Shown here piece by piece: positions 5,726 to 24,159 of a DNA stretch of 64,000 bases (the first letter of the stretch is position 1; every line of letters begins with the position of its first letter). A model generated the notes under the pieces. The model was not told the DNA's origin. It saw only the letters and a program-made list of their open reading frames with translations, and searched no databases. Origin of the DNA: Escherichia coli O157:H7 (GTDB taxonomy: Bacteria; Pseudomonadota; Gammaproteobacteria; Enterobacterales; Enterobacteriaceae); the NCBI RefSeq assembly GCF_013167455.1, contig NZ_CP038328.1, one strand, 5' to 3'. The position numbers were made by a program, and so were the translations under genes.

Positions 5726-7198
5726 ATGTCATCGTTGCAAATTTTGCAAGGCACGTTTCGTCTTAGCGACACAAAAACGCTGCAATTGCCTCAGCTAACG
5801 TTAAACGCGGGTGATAGTTGGGCGTTTGTCGGTTCGAATGGAAGCGGGAAATCGGCCCTGGCCCGCGCGCTGGCGGGGGAACTTCCGCTTTTGAAAGGTG
5901 AACGGCAAAGCCAGTTTTCCCACATCACTCGTCTCTCCTTCGAGCAATTGCAAAAGCTCGTCAGCGACGAATGGCAGCGGAATAACACCGATATGCTCGG
6001 CCCTGGCGAAGATGACACCGGACGCACTACGGCTGAGATTATTCAGGATGAAGTAAAGGATGCACCGCGCTGCATGCAACTGGCACAGCAGTTCGGTATT
6101 ACCCCCCTCCTCGACCGACGCTTTAAATACCTTTCCACTGGCGAGACGCGAAAAACCCTGCTGTGTCAGGCGCTGATGTCGGAGCCTGACTTGTTGATTC
6201 TTGATGAGCCGTTCGATGGCCTGGATGTTGCCTCACGTCAGCAGCTGGCTGAGCGACTCGCCTCGTTACATCAGTCCGGTATTACTCTGGTACTGGTGCT
6301 CAATCGCTTCGATGAGATCCCGGAGTTTGTCCAGTTTGCTGGCGTGCTGGCGGATTGCACGTTAGCGGAAACTGGCGCTAAAGAGGAACTGCTCCAACAA
6401 GCACTCGTCGCGCAACTGGCGCATAGTGAACAGCTTGAAGGTGTGCAACTGCCGGAGCCGGATGAACCTTCAGCACGTCACGCCTTACCCGCCAACGAAC
6501 CGCGCATTGTGCTGAATAATGGCGTGGTTTCTTATAACGATCGCCCCATTCTTAATAACCTTAGCTGGCAGGTGAATCCAGGTGAACACTGGCAAATTGT
6601 CGGGCCAAATGGCGCGGGAAAATCGACGTTATTAAGCCTGATTACTGGCGATCATCCGCAAGGTTACAGCAACGATTTGACGCTTTTCGGACGACGTCGT
6701 GGCAGCGGCGAAACCATCTGGGATATCAAAAAGCATATCGGTTACGTCAGCAGTAGTTTGCATCTGGATTACCGGGTCAGTACTACTGTGCGTAATGTGA
6801 TTCTTTCTGGCTATTTTGATTCGATTGGCATTTATCAGGCCGTTTCGGATCGCCAGCAAAAACTGGTGCAGCAGTGGCTGGATATTCTCGGCATTGATAA
6901 ACGCACGGCTGACGCTCCGTTCCATAGTCTTTCCTGGGGACAGCAGCGTCTGGCGCTGATCGTCCGCGCACTGGTGAAACATCCGACGTTGCTTATTCTC
7001 GACGAACCATTGCAGGGGCTTGATCCGCTCAATCGCCAGCTTATTCGCCGTTTTGTTGATGTGCTGATTAGCGAAGGTGAAACGCAATTGTTGTTTGTTT
7101 CGCACCATGCTGAAGATGCGCCGGCTTGTATTACCCATCGTCTGGAGTTCGTGCCGGACGGTGGCCTCTATCATTATGCGCTGACAAAAATAAACTAA
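5726..7198 (+). CDS. modF: ABC-type ATPase ModF (two ATP-binding domains)
   Basis: ORF track 5714..7198; ATG at 5726 gives 490 aa starting MSSLQILQGTF; two Walker A motifs (GSNGSGKSA, GPNGAGKST). Confidence 0.85.
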   Translation: MSSLQILQGTFRLSDTKTLQLPQLTLNAGDSWAFVGSNGSGKSALARALAGELPLLKGERQSQFSHITRLSFEQLQKLVSDEWQRNNTDMLGPGEDDTGRTTAEIIQDEVKDAPRCMQLAQQFGITPLLDRRFKYLSTGETRKTLLCQALMSEPDLLILDEPFDGLDVASRQQLAERLASLHQSGITLVLVLNRFDEIPEFVQFAGVLADCTLAETGAKEELLQQALVAQLAHSEQLEGVQLPEPDEPSARHALPANEPRIVLNNGVVSYNDRPILNNLSWQVNPGEHWQIVGPNGAGKSTLLSLITGDHPQGYSNDLTLFGRRRGSGETIWDIKKHIGYVSSSLHLDYRVSTTVRNVILSGYFDSIGIYQAVSDRQQKLVQQWLDILGIDKRTADAPFHSLSWGQQRLALIVRALVKHPTLLILDEPLQGLDPLNRQLIRRFVDVLISEGETQLLFVSHHAEDAPACITHRLEFVPDGGLYHYALTKIN

Positions 7199-7214
7199 GT
7201 CGGTAATGCTGACT

Positions 7215-7288
7215 GTGCCGGATGCGGCGTAAACGCTTTATCCGGCACACGGTCAGACGCATCCAGGCATGAAACTGCGTCTTTTTTT
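7215..7288 (+). repeat. REP-like palindromic element plus terminator hairpin downstream of modF
   Basis: GCCGGATGCGGCGTAAACGCTTTATCCGGC palindrome followed by hairpin GACGCA...TGCGTC and a T7 run. Confidence 0.5.
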
Positions 7289-7365
7289 CAGATAAAAAGC
7301 GCAATCATTCACAATCCCTCTGTTTTATAATCACTTAATCGCGCATAAAAAACGGCTAAATTCTT

Positions 7366-7381
7366 GTGTAAACGATTCCAC
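7366..7381. promoter_or_regulatory. gal operator OE (GalR/GalS site)
   Basis: GTGTAAACGATTCCAC upstream of galE, matching the gal external operator. Confidence 0.7.
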
Positions 7382-7459
7382 TAATTTATTCCATGTCACA
7401 CTTTTCGCATCTTTGTTATGCTATGGTTATTTCATACCATAAGCCTAATGGAGCGAATT

Positions 7460-8476
7460 ATGAGAGTTCTGGTCACTGGTGGTAGCGGTTACATTGGAAG
7501 TCATACCTGTGTGCAATTACTGCAAAACGGTCATGATGTCATCATTCTTGATAACCTCTGTAACAGTAAGCGCAGCGTACTGCCTGTTATCGAGCGTTTA
7601 GGCGGCAAACATCCGACGTTTGTTGAAGGCGATATCCGTAACGAAGCGTTGATGACCGAGATCCTGCACGATCACGCTATCGACACCGTGATCCACTTCG
7701 CCGGGCTGAAAGCCGTTGGCGAATCGGTACAAAAACCGCTGGAATATTACGACAACAATGTCAACGGTACTCTGCGCCTGATTAGCGCCATGCGCGCCGC
7801 TAACGTCAAAAACTTTATTTTTAGCTCCTCCGCCACCGTTTATGGCGATCAGCCCAAAATTCCATACGTTGAAAGCTTCCCGACCGGCACACCGCAAAGC
7901 CCTTACGGCAAAAGCAAGCTGATGGTGGAACAGATCCTCACCGATCTGCAAAAAGCCCAGCCGGACTGGAGCATTGCCCTGCTGCGCTACTTCAACCCGG
8001 TTGGCGCACATCCGTCGGGCGATATGGGCGAAGATCCGCAAGGCATTCCGAATAACCTTATGCCATACATCGCCCAGGTTGCTGTAGGCCGTCGCGACTC
8101 GCTGGCGATTTTTGGTAACGATTATCCGACCGAAGACGGTACTGGCGTACGCGATTACATCCACGTAATGGATCTGGCGGACGGTCACGTCGTGGCGATG
8201 GAAAAACTGGCGAACAAGCCAGGCGTACACATCTACAACCTCGGTGCTGGCGTAGGCAGCAGCGTGCTGGACGTGGTTAATGCCTTCAGCAAAGCCTGCG
8301 GCAAACCGGTTAACTATCATTTTGCACCGCGTCGCGAGGGCGACCTTCCGGCCTACTGGGCGGACGCCAGCAAAGCCGACCGTGAACTGAACTGGCGCGT
8401 AACGCGCACACTCGATGAAATGGCGCAGGACACCTGGCACTGGCAGTCACGCCATCCACAGGGATATCCCGATTAA
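7460..8476 (+). CDS. galE: UDP-glucose 4-epimerase
   Basis: ORF track 7418..8476; ATG at 7460 gives 338 aa MRVLVTGGSGYIGSHT (Rossmann GxxGxxG). Confidence 0.9.
   Translation: MRVLVTGGSGYIGSHTCVQLLQNGHDVIILDNLCNSKRSVLPVIERLGGKHPTFVEGDIRNEALMTEILHDHAIDTVIHFAGLKAVGESVQKPLEYYDNNVNGTLRLISAMRAANVKNFIFSSSATVYGDQPKIPYVESFPTGTPQSPYGKSKLMVEQILTDLQKAQPDWSIALLRYFNPVGAHPSGDMGEDPQGIPNNLMPYIAQVAVGRRDSLAIFGNDYPTEDGTGVRDYIHVMDLADGHVVAMEKLANKPGVHIYNLGAGVGSSVLDVVNAFSKACGKPVNYHFAPRREGDLPAYWADASKADRELNWRVTRTLDEMAQDTWHWQSRHPQGYPD
7489..7504. promoter_or_regulatory. gal operator OI (internal, within galE)
   Basis: GTGGTAGCGGTTACAT inside the 5' end of galE, matching the internal gal operator. Confidence 0.65.
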
Positions 8477-8485
8477 GGAACGACC

Positions 8486-9532
8486 ATGACGCAATTTAAT
8501 CCCGTTGATCATCCACATCGCCGCTACAACCAGCTCACCGGGCAATGGATTCTGGTTTCACCGCACCGCGCTAAGCGCCCCTGGCAGGGGGCGCAGGAAA
8601 CGCCAGCCAAACAGGTGTTACCTGCGCACGATCCAGATTGCTTCCTCTGCGCAGGTAATGTGCGGGTGACAGGCGATAAAAACCCCGATTACACCGGGAC
8701 TTACGTTTTCACTAATGACTTTGCGGCCTTGATGTCTGACACGCCAGATGCGCCAGAAAGCAACGATCCTTTGATGCGTTGCCAGAGCGCGCGCGGTACC
8801 AGCCGGGTGATCTGCTTTTCACCGGATCACAGTAAAACGCTGCCAGAACTGAGCGTTGCGGCATTGACGGAAATCGTCAAAACCTGGCAGGAGCAAACCG
8901 CAGAACTGGGGAAAACATACCCGTGGGTGCAGGTCTTTGAAAACAAAGGTGCGGCGATGGGCTGCTCTAACCCGCATCCGCACGGACAGATTTGGGCAAA
9001 TAGCTTCCTGCCTAACGAAGCTGAGCGCGAAGACCGCCTGCAAAAAGAATATTTTGCCGAGCAGAAATCGCCAATGCTGGTGGATTATGTTCAGCGCGAG
9101 CTGGCAGACGGTAGCCGTACCGTTGTCGAAACCGAACACTGGTTAGCAGTTGTGCCTTACTGGGCTGCCTGGCCGTTCGAAACGCTACTTCTGCCCAAAG
9201 CCCACGTTTTGCGGATCACCGATTTGACCGACGCCCAGCGCAGCGATTTGGCACTGGCGTTGAAAAAGCTGACCAGTCGTTATGACAACCTCTTCCAGTG
9301 CTCCTTCCCCTACTCTATGGGCTGGCACGGCGCACCGTTTAATGGCGAAGAGAATCAACACTGGCAGCTGCACGCGCACTTTTATCCGCCTCTGTTGCGC
9401 TCCGCCACCGTACGTAAATTTATGGTTGGTTATGAAATGCTGGCAGAAACCCAGCGAGACCTGACCGCAGAACAGGCAGCAGAGCGTTTGCGCGCAGTCA
9501 GCGATATCCATTTTCGCGAATCCGGAGTGTAA
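8486..9532 (+). CDS. galT: galactose-1-phosphate uridylyltransferase
   Basis: 348 aa ORF; HPH active-site motif (NPHPHGQ) present; gal operon order. Confidence 0.9.
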
Positions 9533-9535
9533 GAA

Positions 9536-10684
9536 ATGAGTCTGAAAGAAAAAACACAATCTCTGTTTGCCAACGCATTTGGCTACCCTGCCACTCATAC
9601 CATTCAGGCGCCTGGCCGCGTGAATTTGATTGGTGAACACACCGACTACAACGACGGTTTCGTTCTGCCCTGCGCGATTGATTATCAAACCGTGATCAGC
9701 TGTGCGCCACGCGATGACCGTAAAGTTCGCGTAATGGCAGCCGATTATGAAAATCAGCTTGATGAGTTTTCCCTTGATGCGCCCATTGTCGCGCATGAAA
9801 ACTATCAATGGGCGAACTACGTTCGTGGCGTGGTGAAACATCTGCAACTGCGTAACAACAGCTTCGGCGGTGTGGACATGGTGATCAGCGGCAATGTGCC
9901 GCAGGGTGCCGGGTTAAGTTCTTCCGCTTCACTGGAAGTCGCGGTCGGAACCGTATTGCAGCAGCTTTATCATCTGCCGCTGGACGGCGCACAAATCGCG
10001 CTTAACGGTCAGGAAGCAGAAAACCAGTTTGTTGGCTGTAACTGCGGGATCATGGATCAGCTAATTTCCGCACTCGGCAAGAAAGATCATGCCTTGCTGA
10101 TTGACTGTCGCTCACTGGGGACCAAAGCAGTTTCCATGCCGAAAGGTGTGGCTGTCGTCATCATCAACAGTAACTTCAAACGTACCCTGGTTGGCAGCGA
10201 ATACAACACCCGTCGTGAACAGTGCGAAACCGGTGCGCGTTTCTTCCAGCAGCCAGCTCTGCGCGATGTCACCATTGAAGAGTTCAACGCTGTTGCACAT
10301 GAGCTGGACCCAATCGTGGCGAAACGCGTGCGTCATATCCTGACTGAAAACGCCCGCACCGTTGAAGCTGCCAGCGCGCTGGAGCAAGGCGACCTGAAAC
10401 GTATGGGCGAGTTGATGGCGGAGTCTCATGCCTCTATGCGCGATGATTTCGAAATCACCGTGCCGCAAATTGACACTCTGGTAGAAATCGTCAAAGCTGT
10501 GATTGGCGACAAAGGTGGCGTACGCATGACCGGCGGCGGATTTGGCGGCTGTATCGTCGCGCTGATCCCGGAAGAGCTGGTGCCTGCCGTACAGCAAGCT
10601 GTCGCAGAACAATATGAAGCAAAAACAGGTATTAAAGAGACTTTTTACGTTTGTAAACCATCACAAGGAGCAGGACAGTGCTGA
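9536..10684 (+). CDS. galK: galactokinase
   Basis: 382 aa ORF with GHMP-kinase motif [11 protein letters not shown]. Confidence 0.9.
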
Positions 10685-11718
10685 ACGAAACTCCCGCACT
10701 GGCACCCGATGGTCAGCCGTACCGACTGTTAACTTTGCGTAACAACGCAGGGATGGTAGTCACGCTGATGGACTGGGGTGCGACTTTACTTTCAGCCCGT
10801 ATTCCGCTTTCCGATGGCAGCGTCCGCGAGGCGCTGCTCGGCTGTGCCAGCCCGGAATGCTATCAGGATCAGGCCGCGTTTCTGGGTGCCTCTATTGGTC
10901 GTTATGCCAACCGCATCGCCAATAGTCGTTATACCTTTGACGGTGAAACCGTGACGCTTTCGCCAAGTCAGGGCGTTAACCAGCTGCACGGCGGCCCGGA
11001 AGGGTTCGACAAACGTCGCTGGCAGATTGTGAACCAGAACGATCGTCAGGTGCTGTTTGCCCTGAGTTCAGATGATGGCGATCAGGGCTTCCCGGGTAAT
11101 CTCGGCGCGACGGTGCAATATCGTCTGACCGACGATAACCGTATCTCCATTACTTATCGCGCCACAGTTGATAAACCTTGCCCGGTGAATATGACTAATC
11201 ACGTCTATTTCAATCTTGACGGCAAGCAGTCTGACGTGCGCAATCACAAGTTGCAGATTCTGGCGGACGAATATCTGCCGGTTGATGAAGGCGGTATTCC
11301 GCACGACGGCCTGAAATCTGTCGCCGGAACGTCTTTTGATTTCCGCAGCGCCAAAATCATCGCCAGTGAGTTTCTTGCCGACGACGATCAGCGCAAAGTG
11401 AAAGGTTACGATCACGCATTCTTGTTACAGGCCAAAGGCGATGGCAAGAAAGTGGCGGCGCATGTCTGGTCAGCAGATGAAAAATTGCAGCTGAAGGTCT
11501 ACACCACCGCTCCGGCTCTGCAATTCTACTCCGGCAACTACCTCGGCGGCACACCGTCGCGGGGAACCGAACCTTACGCCGACTGGCAAGGGCTGGCGTT
11601 GGAAAGCGAGTTTCTGCCGGACAGCCCGAACCACCCTGAATGGCCGCAACCGGACTGTTTCCTGCATCCTGGTGAAGAGTATTCCAGCCTGACGGAATAT
11701 CAGTTTATTGCTGAGTAA
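10678..11718 (+). CDS. galM: galactose mutarotase (aldose 1-epimerase)
   Basis: 346 aa ORF overlapping the galK 3' end; last gene of galETKM. Confidence 0.9.
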
Positions 11719-11723
11719 TGTTA

Positions 11724-11746
11724 AGCCCTCGTCATGAGGGCTTTAT
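11724..11746 (+). terminator. Hairpin terminator after galM
   Basis: GCCCTC-GTCAT-GAGGGC hairpin followed by TTTAT, directly after the galM stop. Confidence 0.45.
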
Positions 11747-11919
11747 CTCATATTGTTCAAATCACCAGCAAACACCGACATATTTGCAACTCAATATTCA
11801 CAACAACCTTACACTGCGCCACTATTTTCGCTATGGTTATGCGTAAGCATTGCTGTTGCTTCGTCACGGCAATATAATGAGAATTATTATCATTAAAAGA
11901 TGATTTGAGGAGTAAGTAT

Positions 11920-12672
11920 ATGGCTGTAACTAAGCTGGTTCTGGTTCGTCATGGCGAAAGTCAGTGGAACAAAGAAAACCGTTTCACCGGTTGGTACGAC
12001 GTGGATCTGTCTGAGAAAGGCGTAAGCGAAGCAAAAGCAGCAGGTAAGCTGCTGAAAGAGGAAGGTTACAGCTTTGACTTTGCTTACACCTCTGTGCTGA
12101 AACGCGCTATCCATACCCTGTGGAATGTGCTGGACGAACTGGATCAGGCATGGCTGCCCGTTGAGAAATCCTGGAAACTGAACGAACGTCACTACGGTGC
12201 GTTGCAGGGTCTGAACAAAGCGGAAACTGCTGAAAAATATGGCGACGAGCAGGTGAAACAGTGGCGTCGTGGTTTTGCAGTGACTCCGCCGGAACTGACT
12301 AAAGATGATGAGCGTTATCCGGGTCACGATCCGCGTTACGCGAAACTGAGCGAGAAAGAACTGCCGCTGACGGAAAGCCTGGCGCTGACCATTGACCGCG
12401 TGATCCCTTACTGGAATGAAACCATTCTGCCGCGTATGAAGAGCGGTGAGCGCGTAATCATCGCTGCACACGGTAACTCGTTACGTGCGCTGGTGAAATA
12501 TCTCGATAACATGAGCGAAGAAGAGATTCTTGAGCTGAATATCCCGACCGGCGTGCCGCTGGTTTATGAGTTTGACGAGAACTTCAAACCGCTGAAACGC
12601 TATTATCTGGGTAATGCTGACGAGATCGCGGCGAAAGCAGCAGCCGTTGCGAACCAGGGTAAAGCGAAGTAA
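11920..12672 (+). CDS. gpmA: 2,3-bisphosphoglycerate-dependent phosphoglycerate mutase
   Basis: ORF track 11905..12672; ATG at 11920 gives 250 aa [17 protein letters not shown] (RHGE catalytic motif). Confidence 0.9.
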
Positions 12673-12696
12673 ACGTCATTCGTTTAAAAATGAGAA

Positions 12697-12726
12697 AGCC
12701 GACTGCAAGTGAGTCGGCTTTTTTGT
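12697..12726 (+). terminator. Rho-independent terminator of gpmA
   Basis: AAGCCGACT-loop-AGTCGGCTT hairpin followed by TTTTT. Confidence 0.6.
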
Positions 12727-12753
12727 TTGTCGTCGCTAACAATGGAGCACATT

Positions 12754-12828
12754 GCCTGATGCGACGCTGCGCGTCTTGTCAGGGCTACGGTGATTCATCG
12801 GATACGCCACTCTGACGGCGCATCCGAC
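12754..12828. repeat. REP elements between gpmA and aroG
   Basis: GCCTGATGCGACGCTGCGCGTCTTGTCAGGGCTACGG and a second REP-like palindrome (GGATACGCC...GGCGCATCCG). Confidence 0.55.
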
Positions 12829-12837
12829 AATTAAACT

Positions 12838-13890
12838 TTACCCGCGACGCGCTTTCACTGCGTTCGCCAGTTGACGTAACAGAGCATCGGTATCTTCCCA
12901 GCCAATGCAGGCATCGGTGATGCTCTTACCATAGGCCAGCGGCTCCCCGCTCTCCAGGCTCTGATTGCCTTCCACCAGATGACTTTCCACCATCACACCG
13001 ATAATGGCCTTTTCGCCACCGGCAATCTGCTGGCAAACGTCAGCACAAACATCCATCTGCTTTTTGAATTGTTTGGACGAATTAGCATGGCTGAAATCGA
13101 TCATCACCTGAGCTGGCAGACCTGCTTTGTTCAGCCCTTCTTTCACTTCAGCAACGTGCTTCGCGCTGTAGTTAGGCTCTTTACCGCCGCGCAGAATGAT
13201 ATGGCAATCGCCGTTACCGCTGGTATTCACAATCGCCGAATGCCCCCATTTAGTTACGGACAGGAAGCAGTGCGGCGCACCGGCGGCATTAATGGCATCG
13301 ATAGCCACTTTAATCGTACCGTCTGTGCCATTTTTAAAACCTACCGGACAAGAAAGACCAGACGCCAGTTCGCGGTGCACCTGCGATTCCGTGGTACGTG
13401 CACCAATTGCGCCCCAGCTCATCAGGTCAGCGAGATACTGAGGAGTGATCATATCGAGGAATTCACCCGCCGCTGGCAGACCGCTGTCGTTAATATCAAG
13501 CAGCAATTTACGGGCTATACGCAGACCGTCGTTGATCTGGAAGCTGTTATCCATATGCGGATCGTTAATCAGCCCTTTCCAGCCCACCGTAGTACGCGGC
13601 TTTTCAAAATAGACGCGCATTACGATTTCCAGCTCATCTTTCAGCTCTTCACGCAGCGCCAGCAAGCGAGTGGCATACTCTTTAGCCGCGACAGGATCAT
13701 GAATTGAGCACGGGCCAATCACCACCAACAGGCGATCATCATTACCTTTCAGGATCTTATGGATCGCTTTTCGGGCATGGGCAACCGTATTCGCGGCATT
13801 TTCAGTAGCGGGGAATTTTTCCAGCAATGCGACAGGAGGAAGTAACTCTTTGATTTCTTTGATGCGTAAATCGTCGTTCTGATAATTCAT
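12838..13890 (-). CDS. aroG: Phe-sensitive DAHP synthase
   Basis: 350 aa ORF MNYQNDDLRIKEIKELLPPVALLEKFPATENAANTVAHARKAIHKIL. Confidence 0.9.
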   Translation of the reverse strand: MNYQNDDLRIKEIKELLPPVALLEKFPATENAANTVAHARKAIHKILKGNDDRLLVVIGPCSIHDPVAAKEYATRLLALREELKDELEIVMRVYFEKPRTTVGWKGLINDPHMDNSFQINDGLRIARKLLLDINDSGLPAAGEFLDMITPQYLADLMSWGAIGARTTESQVHRELASGLSCPVGFKNGTDGTIKVAIDAINAAGAPHCFLSVTKWGHSAIVNTSGNGDCHIILRGGKEPNYSAKHVAEVKEGLNKAGLPAQVMIDFSHANSSKQFKKQMDVCADVCQQIAGGEKAIIGVMVESHLVEGNQSLESGEPLAYGKSITDACIGWEDTDALLRQLANAVKARRG

Positions 13891-13960
13891 GTCTGTTCCA
13901 GTGTTGCCATACTTATCTTAGTGAATGCAATACTTCCAATCTATATCTTCCGTCAGAATG

Positions 13961-13978
13961 TGTAAACGGGGTTTTACA
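13961..13978. promoter_or_regulatory. TyrR box upstream of aroG
   Basis: TGTAAACGGGGTTTTACA matches TGTAAA-N6-TTTACA, about 70 bp upstream of the aroG start. Confidence 0.6.
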
Positions 13979-14205
13979 CTATGAACGGATTAATCCTGGA
14001 ATTAGCAAGAAAAACGCCAGATTGTCGCGAAAAACGAGATCTCTCCTACAATTTCTAACTGTAACTCCTTTGTTTGTTAATTATTTCAAGATTCTCTGCT
14101 GGATTTCTTTGCCTGGCTGAAATCTTAAACCAATGCCTTATATTCACCTGCAAATGCACTGTTGGAAGAGGTTATCCGACATAACGACCATAACAGGAGC
14201 ATCCT

Positions 14206-14586
14206 ATGAAAATGACAAAACTGGCCACACTATTTCTGACTGCCACTCTAAGCCTTGCCAGCGGTGCCGCACTGGCTGCCGATAGCGGAGCGCAAACCAA
14301 TAACGGCCAGGCAAACGCCGCAGCTGATGCGGGCCAGGTAGCCCCTGACGCCCGTGAAAATGTCGCGCCAAATAACGTCGACAATAACGGGGTAAATACC
14401 GGTTCTGGCGGCACTATGCTGCATCCGGATGGTTCTTCAATGAACAATGACGGCATGACCAAAGATGAAGAGCACAAGAACACCATGTGCAAAGATGGTC
14501 GCTGCCCGGATATCAATAAAAAGGTACAAACCGGTGATGGCATCAATAATGATGTCGATACCAAAACCGACGGTACCACGCAGTAA
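14206..14586 (+). CDS. ybgS: secreted protein of unknown function YbgS
   Basis: 126 aa ORF with signal peptide and low-complexity N/G/D-rich body; conserved position. Confidence 0.8.
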
Positions 14587-14607
14587 CCCTGCAAAATAGC
14601 CAATAAT

Positions 14608-14631
14608 GGGAGAGCGGAGTCTCTCCCTTTT
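14608..14631 (+). terminator. Rho-independent terminator of ybgS
   Basis: GGGAGAG-CGGAGT-CTCTCCC hairpin followed by TTTT. Confidence 0.55.
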
Positions 14632-14699
14632 AATTTTTCCCTTCTAAAAGCAGTATGATGTCATAAAGTTAAGTGAGAATAATTAAGGGATGACTCGTC

Positions 14700-15641
14700 A
14701 TGGCGCACTCACACTCACACACGTCCTCACACCTGCCAGAAGATAATAATGCTCGTCGCTTGTTGTATGCTTTCGGCGTGACTGCCGGGTTTATGCTGGT
14801 AGAAGTCATTGGTGGTTTTCTTTCCGGTTCTCTGGCTTTGCTGGCCGATGCGGGTCATATGTTGACCGATACTGCCGCCCTGCTTTTCGCCCTACTCGCC
14901 GTGCAATTTTCACGTCGTCCTCCCACCATTCGCCACACTTTCGGTTGGCTAAGATTGACCACGCTCGCGGCGTTTGTGAATGCCATCGCCCTCGTGGTAA
15001 TTACCATTTTGATTGTCTGGGAGGCGATAGAACGCTTCCGCACGCCGCGTCCGGTCGAGGGCGGCATGATGATGGCAATTGCCGTGGCTGGGTTGCTGGC
15101 AAATATACTTTCTTTCTGGTTACTTCATCACGGCAGCGAAGAGAAAAACCTCAACGTACGAGCAGCGGCACTGCATGTGCTCGGGGACCTGCTGGGTTCG
15201 GTTGGGGCTATTATTGCCGCGTTGATTATTATCTGGACCGGCTGGACACCTGCTGACCCCATTCTCTCGATACTGGTGTCGCTTCTGGTTCTGCGTAGCG
15301 CGTGGCGACTGTTGAAAGATAGCGTGAATGAATTACTTGAGGGTGCACCGGTATCGCTGGATATCGCTGAACTGAAGCGTCGTATGTGCCGGGAAATCCC
15401 GGAAGTCCGCAATGTGCACCATGTGCATGTATGGATGGTAGGCGAGAAGCCGGTGATGACGTTGCATGTGCAGGTGATCCCGCCACACGATCACGATGCC
15501 TTGTTGGATCAGATCCAACACTACCTGATGGATCACTATCAGATTGAGCACGCCACCATTCAGATGGAATATCAACCTTGTCATGGGCCAGACTGCCACC
15601 TGAATGAAGGGGTGTCTGGCCATTCACATCATCACCATTAA
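14700..15641 (+). CDS. zitB: zinc efflux transporter (cation diffusion facilitator)
   Basis: 313 aa ORF with His-rich N and C termini and CDF membrane core. Confidence 0.88.
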
Positions 15642-16357
15642 TGGGACAGCGCGCGTGAGCCTCTTTCGCGTGCGCTATTGATCCACATCCGGCTGCCGTT
15701 GAGCGCAATAAAGGTCAGGATGATGTACTCCAGAGACATGGCGTAAACGCCCTGAAGTGCAAAAATAACGACGCTAATCACGTTAATAATCACCCACAAC
15801 AGCCAGTTTTCCACATACTTACGAGTCATCAGAATCATTGCCACGATAGATAACACCATCATGCAAGAATCCCAGAACGGGAAAGCGTCCGGTTGTAGTT
15901 CAGGCATCGCAACCTGTAATCCTAATGCTTGCATGATGATGACTGCCACGCGGGTCAAAAATGCAAACACCGGATTGATAAATACCGTCATCAGACCAAT
16001 CGAAACAACGCAAACCGCCAACCAGCTGAGTGCCTTCGGCAATGGCAACCAGCGAATTTTTAACTCCGCCTCGTTCTGACTGGTTTGTCGCGACCACGCA
16101 TACCAGCCGTAAATATTCGCGGCAAAGAAAAACACCTGTAATAGCAGGCTGGCATACAGCTGAATCTGAAAGAAAATAATGCCAAACAAGGTGACGTTGA
16201 TCAGGCCAAAGAAGTAGTTGCTGATCTTCTCCAGACTGGCAAGGCCAATACACAGCAACCCGGCGATTGTGCCTACCGCTTCGATCCATGAGAGATCATA
16301 ACCGCCTGCTCCTATTGGTATATGTACCAGGATATTCTGCACACTAAAAAAATCCAT
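15638..16357 (-). CDS. pnuC: nicotinamide riboside transporter
   Basis: 239 aa membrane ORF downstream of nadA on the same strand; 4-nt convergent overlap with zitB. Confidence 0.88.
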
Positions 16358-16394
16358 CTTTCCCCCAAAGCGTAACGTTACGCCTTATTATTCG

Positions 16395-17438
16395 TTATCC
16401 ACGTAGTGTAGCCGCAAAATCCAGCATACGATTGAGCGGCACCAGCGCCCTCTCTCGCAGCCTTTCATCAACATGAACCTCGTAATTGCTTCCTTCCTGT
16501 TCTAATGCCTCAGCGATGGCCTGGAGGCCATTCATGGCCATCCACGGACAATGCGCGCAGCTGCGGCAGGTTGCGCCCTCACCCGCGGTTGGTGCTTCCA
16601 GTAACTCTTTATCTGGCACCGCCTGCTGCATTTTGTAGAAAATACCCCGATCGGTTGCCACAATAAGCCTCTGATGTGGCAATGTTTTCGCAGCAGCGAT
16701 CAGTTGACTGGTGGAACCGACCGCATCCGCCATATCGACAATAGCTTGTGGTGATTCTGGATGCACCAGTATGGCAGCATCCGGGTATTCTTCTTGCAAG
16801 CGGGTTAACGCCTGAGTCTTAAACTCATCATGCACAATGCAGGCACCCTGCCAGCATAAAATGTCTGCGCCCGTCTTTTTTTGCACGTAACGCCCCAGAT
16901 GTTTGTCGGGTGCCCAGATGATTTTTTCACCCAAACTATCCAGATGATCAATAAGTTCGACGGCAATGCTTGAAGTTACCACCCAATCTGCCCGCGCTTT
17001 TACCGCAGCAGAAGTGTTGGCGTAGACGACGACAGTACGATCGGGATGGGCATCGCAAAATGCGTTAAATTCTTCAACAGGGCAGCCGAGATCCAGTGAA
17101 CACTCAGCCTGAAGTGTCGGCATCAGAATTGTTTTTTCCGGACTGAGAATTTTGGCGGTTTCTCCCATAAATCTCACCCCAGCGACTAACAACGTAGAAG
17201 CGGGATGCTTTGCACCGAAGCGCGCCATTTCCAGAGAATCAGAAATACAGCCACCGGTTTCTTCTGCCAGTTGTTGAATTTCGGGATCGGTATAGTAGTG
17301 GGCAACCATCACCGCATTACGTTCTTTTAGCAGACGTTTTATCTTCTCGCGGTAATACGCTTTTTCATCAATGCTTAACGGCGTCGGCTTCGGGGGGAAA
17401 GGATAAATCGCCGTGTCTGGATCAAACATCACGCTCAT
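16395..17438 (-). CDS. nadA: quinolinate synthase A
   Basis: 347 aa [24 protein letters not shown] with conserved Cys residues for the Fe-S cluster. Confidence 0.9.
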
Positions 17439-17510
17439 CTTACCATCTCGTTTTACAGGCTTAACGTTAAAACCGACATTAGCGTGATATTCGCTGTTAT
17501 CGGTGTAATT

Positions 17511-17528
17511 TGTTTTATATGCTAAACA
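17511..17528. promoter_or_regulatory. NadR operator upstream of nadA
   Basis: Palindrome TGTTTTATATGCTAAACA (TGTTTA-N6-TAAACA type) about 75 bp upstream of nadA. Confidence 0.6.
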
Positions 17529-17684
17529 AGATAGTCGAATGGTGGGGAAAAGTCACTCGAATTACGTATGAGATGCCGAATGCCACACTTTGCGTCTTAT
17601 TCCTCCGACGTAAAGTTGTTTACGCAGCAAGCGCGGAGTATGTCATCAGGGTCAAGAATTGAAATTGAGAGATGCCTGAATAGC

Positions 17685-17712
17685 AAAAAAGCGCCTTTAG
17701 GGCGCTTTTTTA
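17685..17712 (-). terminator. Rho-independent terminator at the 3' end of the tRNA array
   Basis: AAGCGCCC-TAAA-GGGCGCTT hairpin followed by TTTTTT on the minus strand, just beyond the last tRNA-Lys. Confidence 0.65.
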
Positions 17713-17715
17713 CAT

Positions 17716-17791
17716 TGGTGGGTCGTGCAGGATTCGAACCTGCGACCAATTGATTAAAAGTCAACTGCTCTACCAACTGAGCTAACGACCC
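17716..17791 (-). tRNA. tRNA-Lys (UUU)
   Basis: 76 nt; reverse complement reads GGGTCGTTAGCTCAGTTGGTAGAGCAGTTGACTTTTAATCAATTGGTCGCAGGTTCGAATCCTGCACGACCCACCA. Confidence 0.95.
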
Positions 17792-17839
17792 ATACGGGTG
17801 TTACCTGAAAGATTTCTACTCGGAACCAATCTTTAAAAT

Positions 17840-17856
17840 TGGTGGGTCGTGCAGGA
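17840..17856 (-). pseudogene. tRNA-Lys 3'-end fragment (17 nt remnant)
   Basis: TGGTGGGTCGTGCAGGA is identical to the 3' end (including CCA) of the intact tRNA-Lys copies, then diverges; upstream context TTAAAATTGG also matches a spacer. Confidence 0.6.
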
Positions 17857-17937
17857 TGACTCGCTTCGCTTGCCCTACGGGCCGTTGCTGACGCAACGTT
17901 ATCCTTCACGCTTAACATCTGAGTTTGATGTTAAAAT

Positions 17938-18013
17938 TGGTGGGTCGTGCAGGATTCGAACCTGCGACCAATTGATTAAAAGTCAACTGCTCTACCAACT
18001 GAGCTAACGACCC
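17938..18013 (-). tRNA. tRNA-Lys (UUU)
   Basis: 76 nt, identical to the copy at 17716-17791. Confidence 0.95.
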
Positions 18014-18016
18014 GAG

Positions 18017-18092
18017 TGGTGGGTGATGACGGGATCGAACCGCCGACCCCCTCCTTGTAAGGGAGGTGCTCTCCCAGCTGAGCTAATCACCC
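18017..18092 (-). tRNA. tRNA-Val (UAC)
   Basis: 76 nt; reverse complement reads GGGTGATTAGCTCAGCTGGGAGAGCACCTCCCTTACAAGGAGGGGGTCGGCGGTTCGATCCCGTCATCACCCACCA. Confidence 0.95.
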
Positions 18093-18143
18093 GATACTGC
18101 GCTGGATACTACAAACTACTTCCACCGAACCCACCGTAATTAG

Positions 18144-18219
18144 TGGTGGGTCGTGCAGGATTCGAACCTGCGACCAATTGATTAAAAGTCAACTGCTCTA
18201 CCAACTGAGCTAACGACCC
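18144..18219 (-). tRNA. tRNA-Lys (UUU)
   Basis: 76 nt, identical to the other tRNA-Lys copies. Confidence 0.95.
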
Positions 18220-18221
18220 GG

Positions 18222-18297
18222 TGGTGGGTGATGACGGGATCGAACCGCCGCCCCCCTCCTTGTAAGGGAGGTGCTCTCCCAGCTGAGCTAATCACCC
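18222..18297 (-). tRNA. tRNA-Val (UAC), one-base variant
   Basis: 76 nt; differs from the copy at 18017-18092 by one base in the variable-loop region (GCCCCCC versus GACCCCC on the plus strand). Confidence 0.9.
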
Positions 18298-18332
18298 GAT
18301 ATTACGCTGGATACTACAACTAACTAGGTTAG

Positions 18333-18408
18333 TGGTGGGTCGTGCAGGATTCGAACCTGCGACCAATTGATTAAAAGTCAACTGCTCTACCAACTGAGCT
18401 AACGACCC
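18333..18408 (-). tRNA. tRNA-Lys (UUU)
   Basis: 76 nt, identical to the other tRNA-Lys copies; first gene of the array (promoter lies at higher coordinates). Confidence 0.95.
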
Positions 18409-18572
18409 ACTTTTTCGTTGCTTTCGGTTTGTTTGATATCCCGTGGCAACGGCGGCATATATTACTGATTTCAGACTTGAGCGCAACAAAAATTTCGATG
18501 TAGATCACTCAACTGCTTATGATTCGCACGACACGACCAGAAATAATGCGACTTCTGGTCGTGTGTTATGCA

Positions 18573-19364
18573 TTACATCGCGTTCAGACGTTTTTGTGCC
18601 TGTTTAGCGCCATCAGTACCAGGGTATTTACTGATAACCTGCTGGTATACGGCTTTCGCTTTTGCGGTGTCACCTTTGTCCTGCATGATGACGCCGACTT
18701 TAAACATCGCATCTGCAGCCTTTGGTGACTTCGGATAGTTTTTCACTACCGAAGCAAAATAGTACGCCGCATCATCTTTTTTACCCTTGTTGTAGTTTAA
18801 CTGACCCAGCCAATAATTGGCGTTTGGCAGGTAAGTTGAATCAGGGTAATTTTTGATGAAATTCTGAAATGCCACCATTGCGTCATCCTGGCGGGATTTA
18901 TCCTGCACCAGCGCAATAGCTGCATTGTAATCCGTGTTTGCATCACCGCTTTTCACCGGCGCGCCAGCATTCGCAGTACCAGCATCAGCTGTCGGCGTCG
19001 TTGATGCCGCCGCACCGCTTTGATCACCGCTGGTTGATTGCGCCGCTGCACCACCGCTGCTGAGGCTGTCGATCTGCAACAGGATCTGCTTTTGCCGCTC
19101 CACGACCTGATTCAGTTGATACTGATTTTCCTGAATCTGACCACGCAGGGAATCAATATCGGATTGATTATCAGAGAGTTGTTGCTGGAGTTGGGTTAAA
19201 AGCTGGCTGTGAGCATTAGAAATACGCTCAAGTTGAATGACGCGGTCTTCGACCGAGCCTGAGCCGACACTACTGATTGGTGCCTGAGCAAAAGCGGCCC
19301 AGGGGGCCGCTATACCAACCAGTAACGACAGACTCAATAGTTGATGTCTGAAGTTACTGCTCAT
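18573..19364 (-). CDS. cpoB: cell-division coordinator CpoB (YbgF), TPR protein
   Basis: 263 aa ORF with signal peptide, coiled-coil and C-terminal TPR repeats; last gene of the tol-pal cluster. Confidence 0.88.
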   Translation of the reverse strand: MSSNFRHQLLSLSLLVGIAAPWAAFAQAPISSVGSGSVEDRVIQLERISNAHSQLLTQLQQQLSDNQSDIDSLRGQIQENQYQLNQVVERQKQILLQIDSLSSGGAAAQSTSGDQSGAAASTTPTADAGTANAGAPVKSGDANTDYNAAIALVQDKSRQDDAMVAFQNFIKNYPDSTYLPNANYWLGQLNYNKGKKDDAAYYFASVVKNYPKSPKAADAMFKVGVIMQDKGDTAKAKAVYQQVISKYPGTDGAKQAQKRLNAM

Positions 19365-19373
19365 GCAATTCTC

Positions 19374-19919
<546 letters not shown>

Positions 19920-19929
19920 TTAATTATTA

Positions 19930-21222
19930 TCACAGATACGGCGACCAGGCAGGGAATTTGACCTGTCCATCAGTTGCCGGAAGACGCGCTTTGAAACGCC
20001 CATCTGTAGAAACCAAATTCAGCACGGATCCCATCCCCTGAGAAGAGCTGTAGATTACCATAGTGCCGTTAGGTGCCAGACTTGGCGTTTCATCCAGGAA
20101 CGTGGACGACAGAACTTGTACGCCTCCCGTTGCCAGATCTTGTTTGGCAATGTGCTGCTGCCCACCATTGGAGCTGACCATTACCATAAATTTACCGTCG
20201 CTGCTGACATCCGCATCCTGGTTCTGCGAACCTTCCCAGGTAATACGTTGTGGCGCACCGCCGTTGATATTCACTTTATAAACCTGTGGACGACCGGCCT
20301 GGTCAGAAGTAAATGCCAGGTTCTGGCTGTCCGGGAACCAGGTCGGTTCGGTATTGTTACTGCGACCATCAGTCACCTGGCGGATCTGACCAGAAGCCAA
20401 ATCCATTACGTACAGGTTCAGGCTACCGGTTTTCGACAAGGCGAATGCCAGTTTGCTGCCGTCTGGCGAGAATGCAGGCGCACCGTTGTGACGCGGGAAT
20501 GAAGCCACCTGACGTACAGCGCCGTTTGCCAGCGTTTGTATAACCAGCGCGGAACGACCGCTTTCGAAGGTCACATAAGCCAGTTTAGAACCGTCTGGTG
20601 ACCACGCCGGGGACATCAGCGGCTGTGGTGAACGGTGAACGACAAACTGGTTGTAACCGTCATAGTCAGATACGCGCAGTTCATACGGGAACTGACCGCC
20701 GTTGGTCTGAACAACGTAGGCAATACGGGTACGGAACGCACCTTTAATACCGGTCAGTTTTTCAAACACTTCATCACTGGCGGTATGACCAGCATAACGC
20801 AGCCACTGCTTGTTCACTTTGTACGAGTTCTGAGCAAGTACAGTACCCGGTGCGCCGCCAGTGTCAACAAGTTGATAAGCAACATTGTAAGAACCATCCG
20901 GATTCGGAGTGACCTGACCGACAACTACAGCGTCAATACCCAGCGCGGACCATGCAGCTGGTTGTACTTCCTGCGCACTACCCGGCTGCTGTGGCAGACG
21001 AGCGCGATCTAACGGATTAAATTTACCGCTGTTACGCAAGTCGGCAGCAACGATGCCGCCAATATCTTCAGGTGCCGCACCAGGGCCCGCCCACTGGAAA
21101 GGAACAACTCCAATAGGACGACCGGAATCTACACCGCTGTCGATCACAATGCGGACTTCAGCATGCAGAACTGATGCCCACAGTATGAGAAAACCAAATG
21201 CTACTCGTAATGCCTGCTTCAT
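19930..21222 (-). CDS. tolB: Tol-Pal system periplasmic protein TolB
   Basis: 430 aa from the second in-frame ATG ([21 protein letters not shown]); beta-propeller protein. Confidence 0.9.
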
Positions 21223-21354
21223 CATATCTCCCTTATCTGGACCGATGGCCCACGATAATTTAGCAGAATGTTAACAAACTAAAATACACAAAACTACCAG
21301 AACCCCGTGGCAACCGGTGCCTGATGTTGACCGTCGGAACAGTCAACATCGCGA

Positions 21355-22569
21355 TTACGGTTTGAAGTCCAATGGCGCGTTTTTGAACACTTCATATACT
21401 GCCTGGCTTGGTGGTTTCGGGATCTTCGCAAGTTTAGCTGCTGCCAACGCAGCCTGACAAAGTGCGGGATCGCCACCTTCAGGTTTGATATCCAGTAACA
21501 TACCATCGGGTGCCAGTTTTATGCGCAGCGTACAGGTTTTGCCTGCATAGGACGATGCGTCATAGAACTTACTTTCGATAGCAGATTTAATCTGCCCGGC
21601 ATAGTTATTGATATCGGCCCCTGATGCGCCATTGTTTTTAGTATTACCACTCCCGGCAGGCGAAGCATTGTTCCCTTTCGCCCCTCCCCCCGTTTTCGGT
21701 GCATTCTTACCAGAGCTTAGCTCACCGAAAATATCATCTGCCTCCGCGGCAGCTTTTGCTGCAGCGGCTTTTTCAGCTGCTGCTTTTGCAGCTGCCGCTT
21801 TTTTGTCTGCGGCGGCTTTTTCTGCCGCTGCTTTCTTATCAGCTGCTGCCTTTTCAGCAGCCGCTTTTTCTGCTGCTTTTTTGTCGGCTGCAGCTTTCTC
21901 TGCTGCTTTTTTGTCGGCTGCAGCTTTCTCTGCTGCCGCTTTCTTTCTTGCTTCAGCTGCAGCTGCTTCTGCCGCTTCCGCTTTCTTCTTCAGCGCCGCA
22001 GCTGCTGCCTCGGCTTTTTTCTGCGCTTCGGCTGCGGCTTTGGCGGCTTCTGCTTCTGCTTTTTTCTTCGCGTCTGCAGCCGCTTTCTTCGCTGCTTCTT
22101 CCGCAGCTTTATCATCCGCTTCGGCCTTCGCTTTAGCATCTGCCGCCGCTTTCGCTGCCGCCTCTTCCGCTTGCTTCTGCTTTAACTCGGCCTGTTTTGC
22201 GGCTTCTTCAGCCTGCTTTTTCTGTTCCTGAGCAGCTAACCGCTCTTTCTCAAGTTGCTTCAGGCGTTCCTGTTCAGCCGCTTGTTTCTCACGCAGTTCT
22301 TCAGCAGCCTGCTGTTCCTTCATCTTGCGCTGCTCATCAGAACGCTTCGCGCTTGATTCCTGGCTTTGCATGCGTTTGTACTGCTCAACTACCGCACCTG
22401 AATCAACCATGACAGCGTCGATGGACGAACCACCGCCGCCTCCAGCTGAAGCTTCTATATTCTCATCGAACGAACTCCAGATCAGCGCCGCAAATAAGAT
22501 GACATGCAGCACTGCTGAAATAATTATCGCCCGCTTGAGCTTGTCGTTTTGTTCGGTTGCCTTTGACAC
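21355..22569 (-). CDS. tolA: Tol-Pal system protein TolA
   Basis: 404 aa ORF; N-terminal TM anchor, long Ala/Lys/Glu-rich helical domain II, C-terminal domain III. From memory K-12 TolA is 421 aa. Confidence 0.88.
   Translation of the reverse strand: MSKATEQNDKLKRAIIISAVLHVILFAALIWSSFDENIEASAGGGGGSSIDAVMVDSGAVVEQYKRMQSQESSAKRSDEQRKMKEQQAAEELREKQAAEQERLKQLEKERLAAQEQKKQAEEAAKQAELKQKQAEEAAAKAAADAKAKAEADDKAAEEAAKKAAADAKKKAEAEAAKAAAEAQKKAEAAAAALKKKAEAAEAAAAEARKKAAAEKAAADKKAAEKAAADKKAAEKAAAEKAAADKKAAAEKAAADKKAAAAKAAAEKAAAAKAAAEADDIFGELSSGKNAPKTGGGAKGNNASPAGSGNTKNNGASGADINNYAGQIKSAIESKFYDASSYAGKTCTLRIKLAPDGMLLDIKPEGGDPALCQAALAAAKLAKIPKPPSQAVYEVFKNAPLDFKP
21871..21930. repeat. Exact 30-bp tandem duplication within tolA domain II
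   Basis: TGCTGCTTTTTTGTCGGCTGCAGCTTTCTC occurs twice consecutively (21871-21900 and 21901-21930), inside a larger degenerate Ala/Lys repeat region. Confidence 0.85.
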
Positions 22570-22633
22570 TCTCGGTTTCCAAAAACTGTTCGCCTGTTAC
22601 CCGCTCTCTTTCAAGCAAGGGAAACGCAGATGT

Positions 22634-23062
22634 TTAGATAGGCTGCGTCATTAAACCAACCGATTTCACACCCGCACTATGTAACAAGTTCAGTGCTTTA
22701 ATTATTTCATCGTAAGGCACATCTTTTGCGCCACCGATCAGAAAGACCGTTTTCGGGTTGGCCTTGAAACGGCTGGACACTTCCGCCACCACCTGCTCTG
22801 GTGGTAAACGCTCCAGGCGATCTTTCTCAACCACCACGGTGTACTGACCAATACCAGACACTTCAACAATCACTGGCGGATTATCGTTACTGCTCACCGC
22901 CTGTGATTCAGTAGCGTCTGGCAAATCGACCTCCACGCTCTGGGTGATGATGGGCGCTGTCGCCATAAAGATCAGCAACAGCACCAGCAGTACGTCCAGC
23001 AACGGTACAATGTTGATTTCGGACTTGAGATCGCGACGACCTCGTCCACGCGCTCTGGCCAT
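22634..23062 (-). CDS. tolR: Tol-Pal system protein TolR
   Basis: 142 aa ORF, ExbD/TolR family. Confidence 0.9.
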   Translation of the reverse strand: MARARGRGRRDLKSEINIVPLLDVLLVLLLIFMATAPIITQSVEVDLPDATESQAVSSNDNPPVIVEVSGIGQYTVVVEKDRLERLPPEQVVAEVSSRFKANPKTVFLIGGAKDVPYDEIIKALNLLHSAGVKSVGLMTQPI

Positions 23063-23065
23063 GGC

Positions 23066-24159
<1,094 letters not shown>

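Follow-up and report, generated by a model that had tools for sequence, protein, structure and literature searches.

A tolA allele of Escherichia coli O157:H7 with an exact 30-bp tandem duplication in a shortened domain II repeat tract

The tolA gene and its repeat tract

The window analysed here, a stretch of 64,000 nucleotides from Escherichia coli O157:H7, contains the ybgC-tolQ-tolR-tolA-tolB-pal operon at positions 19,374–24,159 on the minus strand, the strand of all features described below. The gene order ybgC-tolQ-tolR-tolA-tolB-pal-cpoB was found among the open reading frames of the window and in the RefSeq annotation of the O157 strain FDAARGOS_293, in which a 7.2-kb stretch around tolA is identical. 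According to the open reading frame list, the tolA coding sequence (21,355–22,569) comprises 1215 bp, starts with GTG and encodes 404 amino acids; the tolA annotated in FDAARGOS_293 has the same sequence (100% identity). The protein matches curated TolA models over its full length and above their cut-offs, with 543.7 bits over residues 1–404 for the NCBIfam equivalog NF007065 (cut-off 213) and 298 bits for TIGR02794. The N-terminal membrane helix of domain I (22,471–22,518; SAVLHVILFAALIWSS, read from the translation) carries all four residues, S18, H22, L29 and S33, of the SHLS motor-binding motif as defined by Williams-Jones et al. (PNAS 2023, PMC10666116). The C-terminal domain III (amino acids 308–402; 21,364–21,648) is covered by Pfam PF06519 with 131 bits, and in the protein alignment its sequence equals that of K-12.

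Compared with TolA of K-12, the 421-aa reference of the Tol-Pal system, domain I, the last repeat units and domain III are identical, the first ~150 residues of domain II differ by one A-to-D change, and the operon context is the same. Because the membrane anchor, the SHLS motif, the last repeat units and domain III are all retained, the window protein should be a working TolA, its Tol-Pal function being predicted from the intact domains. Outer-membrane integrity and the entry of group A colicins and Ff phages would likewise be predicted, from intact domains I and III together with published constructs of 6–39 repeat units.

The repeat-unit region of tolA spans 21,742–21,945 according to a unit parse, and Tandem Repeats Finder (TRF), a check that the sequence-only reading of this DNA had proposed, reported arrays with periods of 15 and 66 across 21,746–21,942, i.e., head-to-tail units inside the coding sequence. 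When parsed as K(K)AA(A)(E/D/A), the K-12 tract shows 13 good units preceded by three degenerate ones; the good units number 11 in the Sakai-type allele and 13 in the window allele, which lacks the degenerate ones.

The tolA gene of K-12 MG1655 has a length of 1266 bp, corresponding to 421 aa. The sequence-only reading had given this protein length, had attributed the difference to the Ala/Lys/Glu-rich repeat region, and had noted an exact 30-bp unit duplicated at 21,871–21,930; all three statements proved correct. In the alignment, every length difference between the window tolA and that of K-12 is confined to the Lys/Ala/Glu tract, and in a self-comparison the 30-mers at 21,871–21,900 and 21,901–21,930 are identical. 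The 17-aa deficit in domain II is the net outcome of two changes in opposite directions, as alignment and exact reconstruction agree: the window protein lacks 27 residues, KKAATEAAEKAKAEAEKKAAAEKAAAD, and contains the 10-residue segment AAEKAAADKK twice. A single deletion of 17 aa was ruled out by the same alignment and reconstruction. The shortness relative to K-12 is due to a presumably older 81-bp deletion common to the O157 alleles examined, and the spacer of the window protein is 17 residues shorter than that of K-12 and 10 residues longer than that of Sakai. With the rise of 1.5 Å per residue in an alpha-helix, 17 residues amount to about 25 Å of spacer, if the tract is a straight helix.

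In gene orientation, the 30-bp unit reads GCAGCAGAGAAAGCTGCAGCCGACAAAAAA and encodes AAEKAAADKK. The phase of the repeat is arbitrary; in the phase used here, copy 1 occupies 21,907–21,936 (gene nt 634–663) and copy 2, an exact replica without counterpart in the Sakai/EDL933-type alleles, occupies 21,877–21,906 (gene nt 664–693). The adjoining 8 bp, GCAGCAGA (21,869–21,876), repeat the start of the unit and constitute the microhomology that borders the duplicated block. At offset 30, the exact self-match therefore extends over 38 bp (30 + 8; 21,869–21,906 vs 21,899–21,936), so that 21,869–21,936 holds the unit twice in full and its first 8 bp once more. The next-longest exact direct repeat in tolA measures 12 bp, and other pairs of 30-mers in the array share at most 27 of 30 positions. 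When the codons of domain II were shuffled 200 times, the longest exact repeat averaged 12.8 bp with a maximum of 18 bp, compared with the 38 bp observed. The duplication is well beyond the background repetitiveness of the tract. It lengthens TolA by 10 aa compared with the immediate ancestor and, because the two copies are identical, appears to be recent. The 38-bp perfect repeat that it created should itself be unstable.

Alleles within O157:H7 and across E. coli

O55:H7 is the lineage that gave rise to O157:H7. In the O55:H7 strain CB9615, tolA has 1266 bp, and removing 81 bp from it yields the 1185-bp O157 allele with 0 mismatches; when the 81 bp are removed from K-12 tolA instead, 14 sites differ. 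The 81-bp deletion has 13 equivalent placements, and therefore a 12-bp direct repeat flanks it. In the window, this sequence, AAGAAAGCGGCA, marks the junction of the deletion vs O55:H7 and K-12 at 21,934–21,945. The 1185-bp allele (394 aa) was found in Sakai, EDL933, Xuzhou21, 86-24, ATCC 35150, 493/89 and LSU61, the last two of which we take to be early-branching O157 strains. Subtracting one 30-bp copy from the window allele gives the 1185-bp allele, again with 0 mismatches, and in this single-copy allele the 30-bp block is flanked by the 8-bp direct repeat GCAGCAGA. Given these exact derivations, the carriers of the 1185-bp allele and the 1266-bp length in O55:H7, the most parsimonious order of events would be 1266 to 1185 to 1215 bp, based on a few reference strains and on background on the O157 phylogeny.

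Longer alleles extend this series. A 60-bp block (21,848–21,907; gene nt 663–722) that is single-copy in the window is present twice in the 1275-bp and three times in the 1335-bp O157:H7 alleles. The TW14359 allele (1275 bp, 424 aa) minus 60 bp is exactly the window allele, with a 6-bp microhomology flanking the block, and the F8797 allele (1335 bp) minus 60 bp is exactly that of TW14359. EC4115, SS17 and SS52 show the same 99.9% match to the 1275-bp allele as TW14359, the strain used for the exact derivation. Further 30-bp copies as the source of the 1275-bp allele were rejected: synthetic alleles with three to six copies had no match, and the additional sequence comes from a different duplication, of 60 bp. 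A subset of the 1275-bp alleles (ECP17-46 type) carries the SNP G1223A in domain III. Taking one 30-bp copy out of the ECP17-46 1275-bp allele produces exactly the 1245-bp allele of strains 272, 28RC1 and NE122, which also has G1223A; this points to a probable secondary loss of one copy from 1275 bp. Construction of the 1245-bp allele as 1185 + 60 bp leaves 1 mismatch and was discarded. Altogether, the O157 lengths of 1185, 1215, 1245, 1275 and 1335 bp differ by whole 30- or 60-bp blocks plus one SNP outside the tract. The history of the tract in this clade, as read from these derivations, would comprise one deletion, at least three expansions and, probably, one contraction.

To count alleles, we used identity bands (≥99%) in a set of 5,426 complete E. 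coli genomes. The 1215-bp allele of the window was present in ~143 independently assembled genomes of the 5,426, the 1185-bp allele in ~105–106, the 1275-bp allele in 44–45 (band count 45, with 44 listed at ≥99.9%) and the 1245-bp allele in 3–4 (band count 4, with 3 listed at 100%). A few partial matches at most may be among these band counts, with one such record probably raising some bands by one, and the counts are weighted by the heavy sampling of outbreak strains. The named 1215-bp carriers seen were all O157-type genomes of 5.4–5.8 Mb. The common length in E. coli is 1266 bp, found in 26 of 39 and 40 of 59 full-length matches (67–68%) in evenly spaced samples of all genomes, and differs from that of the window allele. 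Among the samples and matches listed there were at least 16 in-frame lengths (1185, 1215, 1224, 1233, 1245, 1251, 1260, 1266, 1272, 1275, 1290, 1299, 1311, 1335, 1344 and 1389 bp). The suggestion that the tract is undergoing ongoing expansion and contraction, made from the window alone, agrees with this variety and with the five O157 lengths.

All full-length alleles seen were multiples of three except for one 1265-bp span (NZ_OZ489144.2, 1,887,593–1,888,857), which reflects a frameshift or else an error of assembly. For VTB96937v, which has the 1389-bp allele, RefSeq places the tolA start at nt 43 of the match, although the sequence ahead of it is conserved and all the other strains start from the GTG; this constitutes an annotation inconsistency. 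In Ec15103, whose genome measures 4.99 Mb, the 81-bp deletion recurs in a 1185-bp tolA on another SNP background, which departs from the O157 allele at 16 sites. It seems that this five-unit deletion originated or spread on more than one occasion, and its presence in Ec15103 parallels the predominant five-unit deletions among published laboratory revertants.

Published tolA variation and effects of domain II length

Repeat-length polymorphism of tolA has been published before (Zhou, Michiels, Aertsen, PLoS One 2012, PMC3477136), and in this respect the observation made here is correct but ordinary. In their description, the K-12 tract comprises 13 imperfect repeats, each 15 or 18 bp long; the gene, the 15/18-bp unit tract, K(K)AAA(E/D), and the in-frame gain or loss of units are the same in the window. 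By their unit count the window allele has about 10 units, whereas the direct parse gives the 13 well-formed units mentioned above, with the three degenerate ones missing. According to the survey of 234 isolates as cited in PMC3477136, strains have 8–16 units, with 13 units in 66% of them and a different unit distribution in some pathogens. The frequency of the 13-unit K-12 allele in that citation, about two thirds of strains, resembles that in our samples, and the cited minimum of eight units would fit the 1185-bp class (K-12 minus five units). The natural lengths now available, up to 1389 bp or roughly 21 units, exceed the range as cited there. In their laboratory revertants, five-unit deletions were commonest, and some reached into degenerate upstream units (PMC3477136), as does the O157 deletion. 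The stepwise chain from O55:H7 through the Sakai-type, window and TW14359-type alleles to F8797 was worked out here from genomes. The natural-isolate survey is reportedly that of Zhou, Vanoirbeek, Aertsen and Michiels (2012, Res Microbiol 163:316).

Regarding function, SDS sensitivity was complemented by all constructs with 2–39 units, deoxycholate tolerance increased with unit number, and plating of phage fd on every construct other than the 13-unit one was 28–43% of wild type; the 13-unit length gave full sensitivity to fd and, overall, the best stress profile (PMC3477136). The variants phenotyped were synthetic K-12 constructs with 2, 6, 8, 13, 26 and 39 units, and the structure of the window allele is not among them. 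Stabilisation of the outer membrane requires a structured domain II; deletion of the domain abolishes killing by colicins, and constructs of varied length and composition stay colicin-sensitive (Williams-Jones et al., PMC10666116). The sequence-only reading had remarked that domain II length can affect colicin and phage uptake, and the published constructs in both studies support that length matters. Any effect of spacer length in the window allele is expected to be quantitative, on bile-salt tolerance and filamentous phage entry, rather than a loss of function.

With head-to-tail units and whole-unit copy-number differences between close relatives that keep the reading frame, the tract is an intragenic in-frame VNTR. 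It resembles the enteric loci used for VNTR typing (MLVA) in that copy number changes stepwise among very close relatives; in contrast to these loci, its units are coding, imperfect and long, and because of this the tract changes far more slowly than the 6–9-bp MLVA loci of O157. A literature search gave one hit suggesting a mention of tolA in Salmonella Enteritidis MLVA papers, and no evidence for tolA as a standard O157 MLVA locus. A role as contingency locus was proposed by Zhou et al. (PMC3477136). We do not class tolA as such a locus; the O157 series would contain one reversal, from 1275 to 1245 bp.

Origin of the window allele

We consider it highly probable that the tolA of the window is an allele of an O157:H7 sub-lineage that originated from two misalignment events and that it encodes a likely working TolA with quantitative effects. 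After the split from O55:H7, an 81-bp deletion between two 12-bp direct repeats, AAGAAAGCGGCA, would have taken out five repeat units, leading to the 394-aa allele still present in Sakai and EDL933. In a descendant, a two-unit block of 30 bp would then have been duplicated between the 8-bp direct repeats GCAGCAGA, leading to 1215 bp and 404 aa. Misaligned replication, by strand slippage or template switching at short direct repeats within a diverged array, is the most likely mechanism.

Because of the published effect of recA, RecA-dependent unequal recombination between misaligned units on sister chromosomes is the main alternative, and we regard it as possible though rather unlikely. For efficient pairing, RecA requires roughly 20–30 bp of homology, and the exact homology at the three junctions is just 12, 8 and 6 bp, although the array offers long stretches of 70–90% similarity around them. 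In clonal culture of an engineered K-12 allele, contractions occurred at 6.9e-5, and this rate dropped to 15% in a recA mutant and rose 3.3-fold in a uvrD mutant, from which Zhou et al. concluded that recombination is the main mechanism (PMC3477136). However, residual events persisted in the recA mutant and included novel alleles, and the published data concern contractions of one engineered allele, with no expansion among 150 colonies (PMC3477136). Import of the allele from another E. coli lineage by homologous recombination has a starting point in Ec15103, whose genome is not of O157 size and carries the 81-bp deletion, so that the deletion state is not unique to one background. Nevertheless, no SNP and just the 30-bp block separate the window allele from the Sakai-type allele, compared with 16 sites in Ec15103; together with the mismatch-free derivation of the 1185-bp allele from O55:H7 (vs 14 sites from K-12) and the O157-type background of all named carriers seen, this makes import very improbable. 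Low-complexity sequence with short, perfect tandem duplications is well known as a place where assemblies go wrong, and the sequence-only reading had allowed for a sequencing artefact. Here, such an error can be excluded with near certainty: the identical allele occurs in the ~143 complete genomes, which were produced in different years by many laboratories in many countries, the related alleles form a consistent chain of whole repeat blocks, and the 68-bp repeat region lies well inside the length of a single read.

A further question is whether the expansions following misaligned replication were adaptive. Following the ancestral loss of 27 aa, the duplications of +10, +20 and +20 aa might have been selected because they brought domain II back near the optimal length typical of the species, a proposal we judge doubtful; it is similarly doubtful that the window allele would be an intermediate on the way to about 421–424 aa. 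The O157 chain comprises at least three expansions vs one inferred contraction, the 1275-bp allele with its 424 aa comes close to the modal 421 aa, and re-lengthened alleles are found in ~190 of ~296 O157-type complete genomes; the advantage of 13 units and the rise of deoxycholate tolerance with unit number in the published constructs (PMC3477136) point in the same direction. On the other hand, outbreak and surveillance sampling distorts the genome counts, as does clonal descent, and the counts therefore represent strains, not events. Moreover, strains of the Sakai/EDL933 type are successful pathogens with the shortest allele, and the 1335-bp allele overshoots the proposed optimum. If selection for length were nevertheless at work, the window allele would be a compensatory intermediate caught in the act, affecting the length of a periplasm-spanning force transducer.

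Returning to the two misalignment events as the preferred origin, the increment over previous work is only the exact allele chain within the O157 clade. The tolA lengths of 1185, 1215, 1245, 1275 and 1335 bp provide a simple in-frame marker that separates O157:H7 sub-lineages, namely Sakai/EDL933 vs the group of the window strain vs TW14359/EC4115, and the series would represent natural expansions, a type of event that was unrecovered in the laboratory study of 2012. Comparisons of TolA phenotypes between K-12 and O157 involve periplasmic spacers that differ by 17 to 27 residues, at a locus whose hypervariable repeat length has been tied by published work to bile-salt tolerance and filamentous-phage entry.

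Additionally, we noticed in O55:H7 CB9615 a block of ~13 kb between sucD and cydA, just upstream of the cyd-tol region (6645–19,561 of the CB9615 locus examined). It encodes methylaspartate mutase, methylaspartate ammonia-lyase, a class I fumarate hydratase and a dicarboxylate symporter, and to our knowledge it has no equivalent in K-12. The block probably continues into the window beyond cydA.
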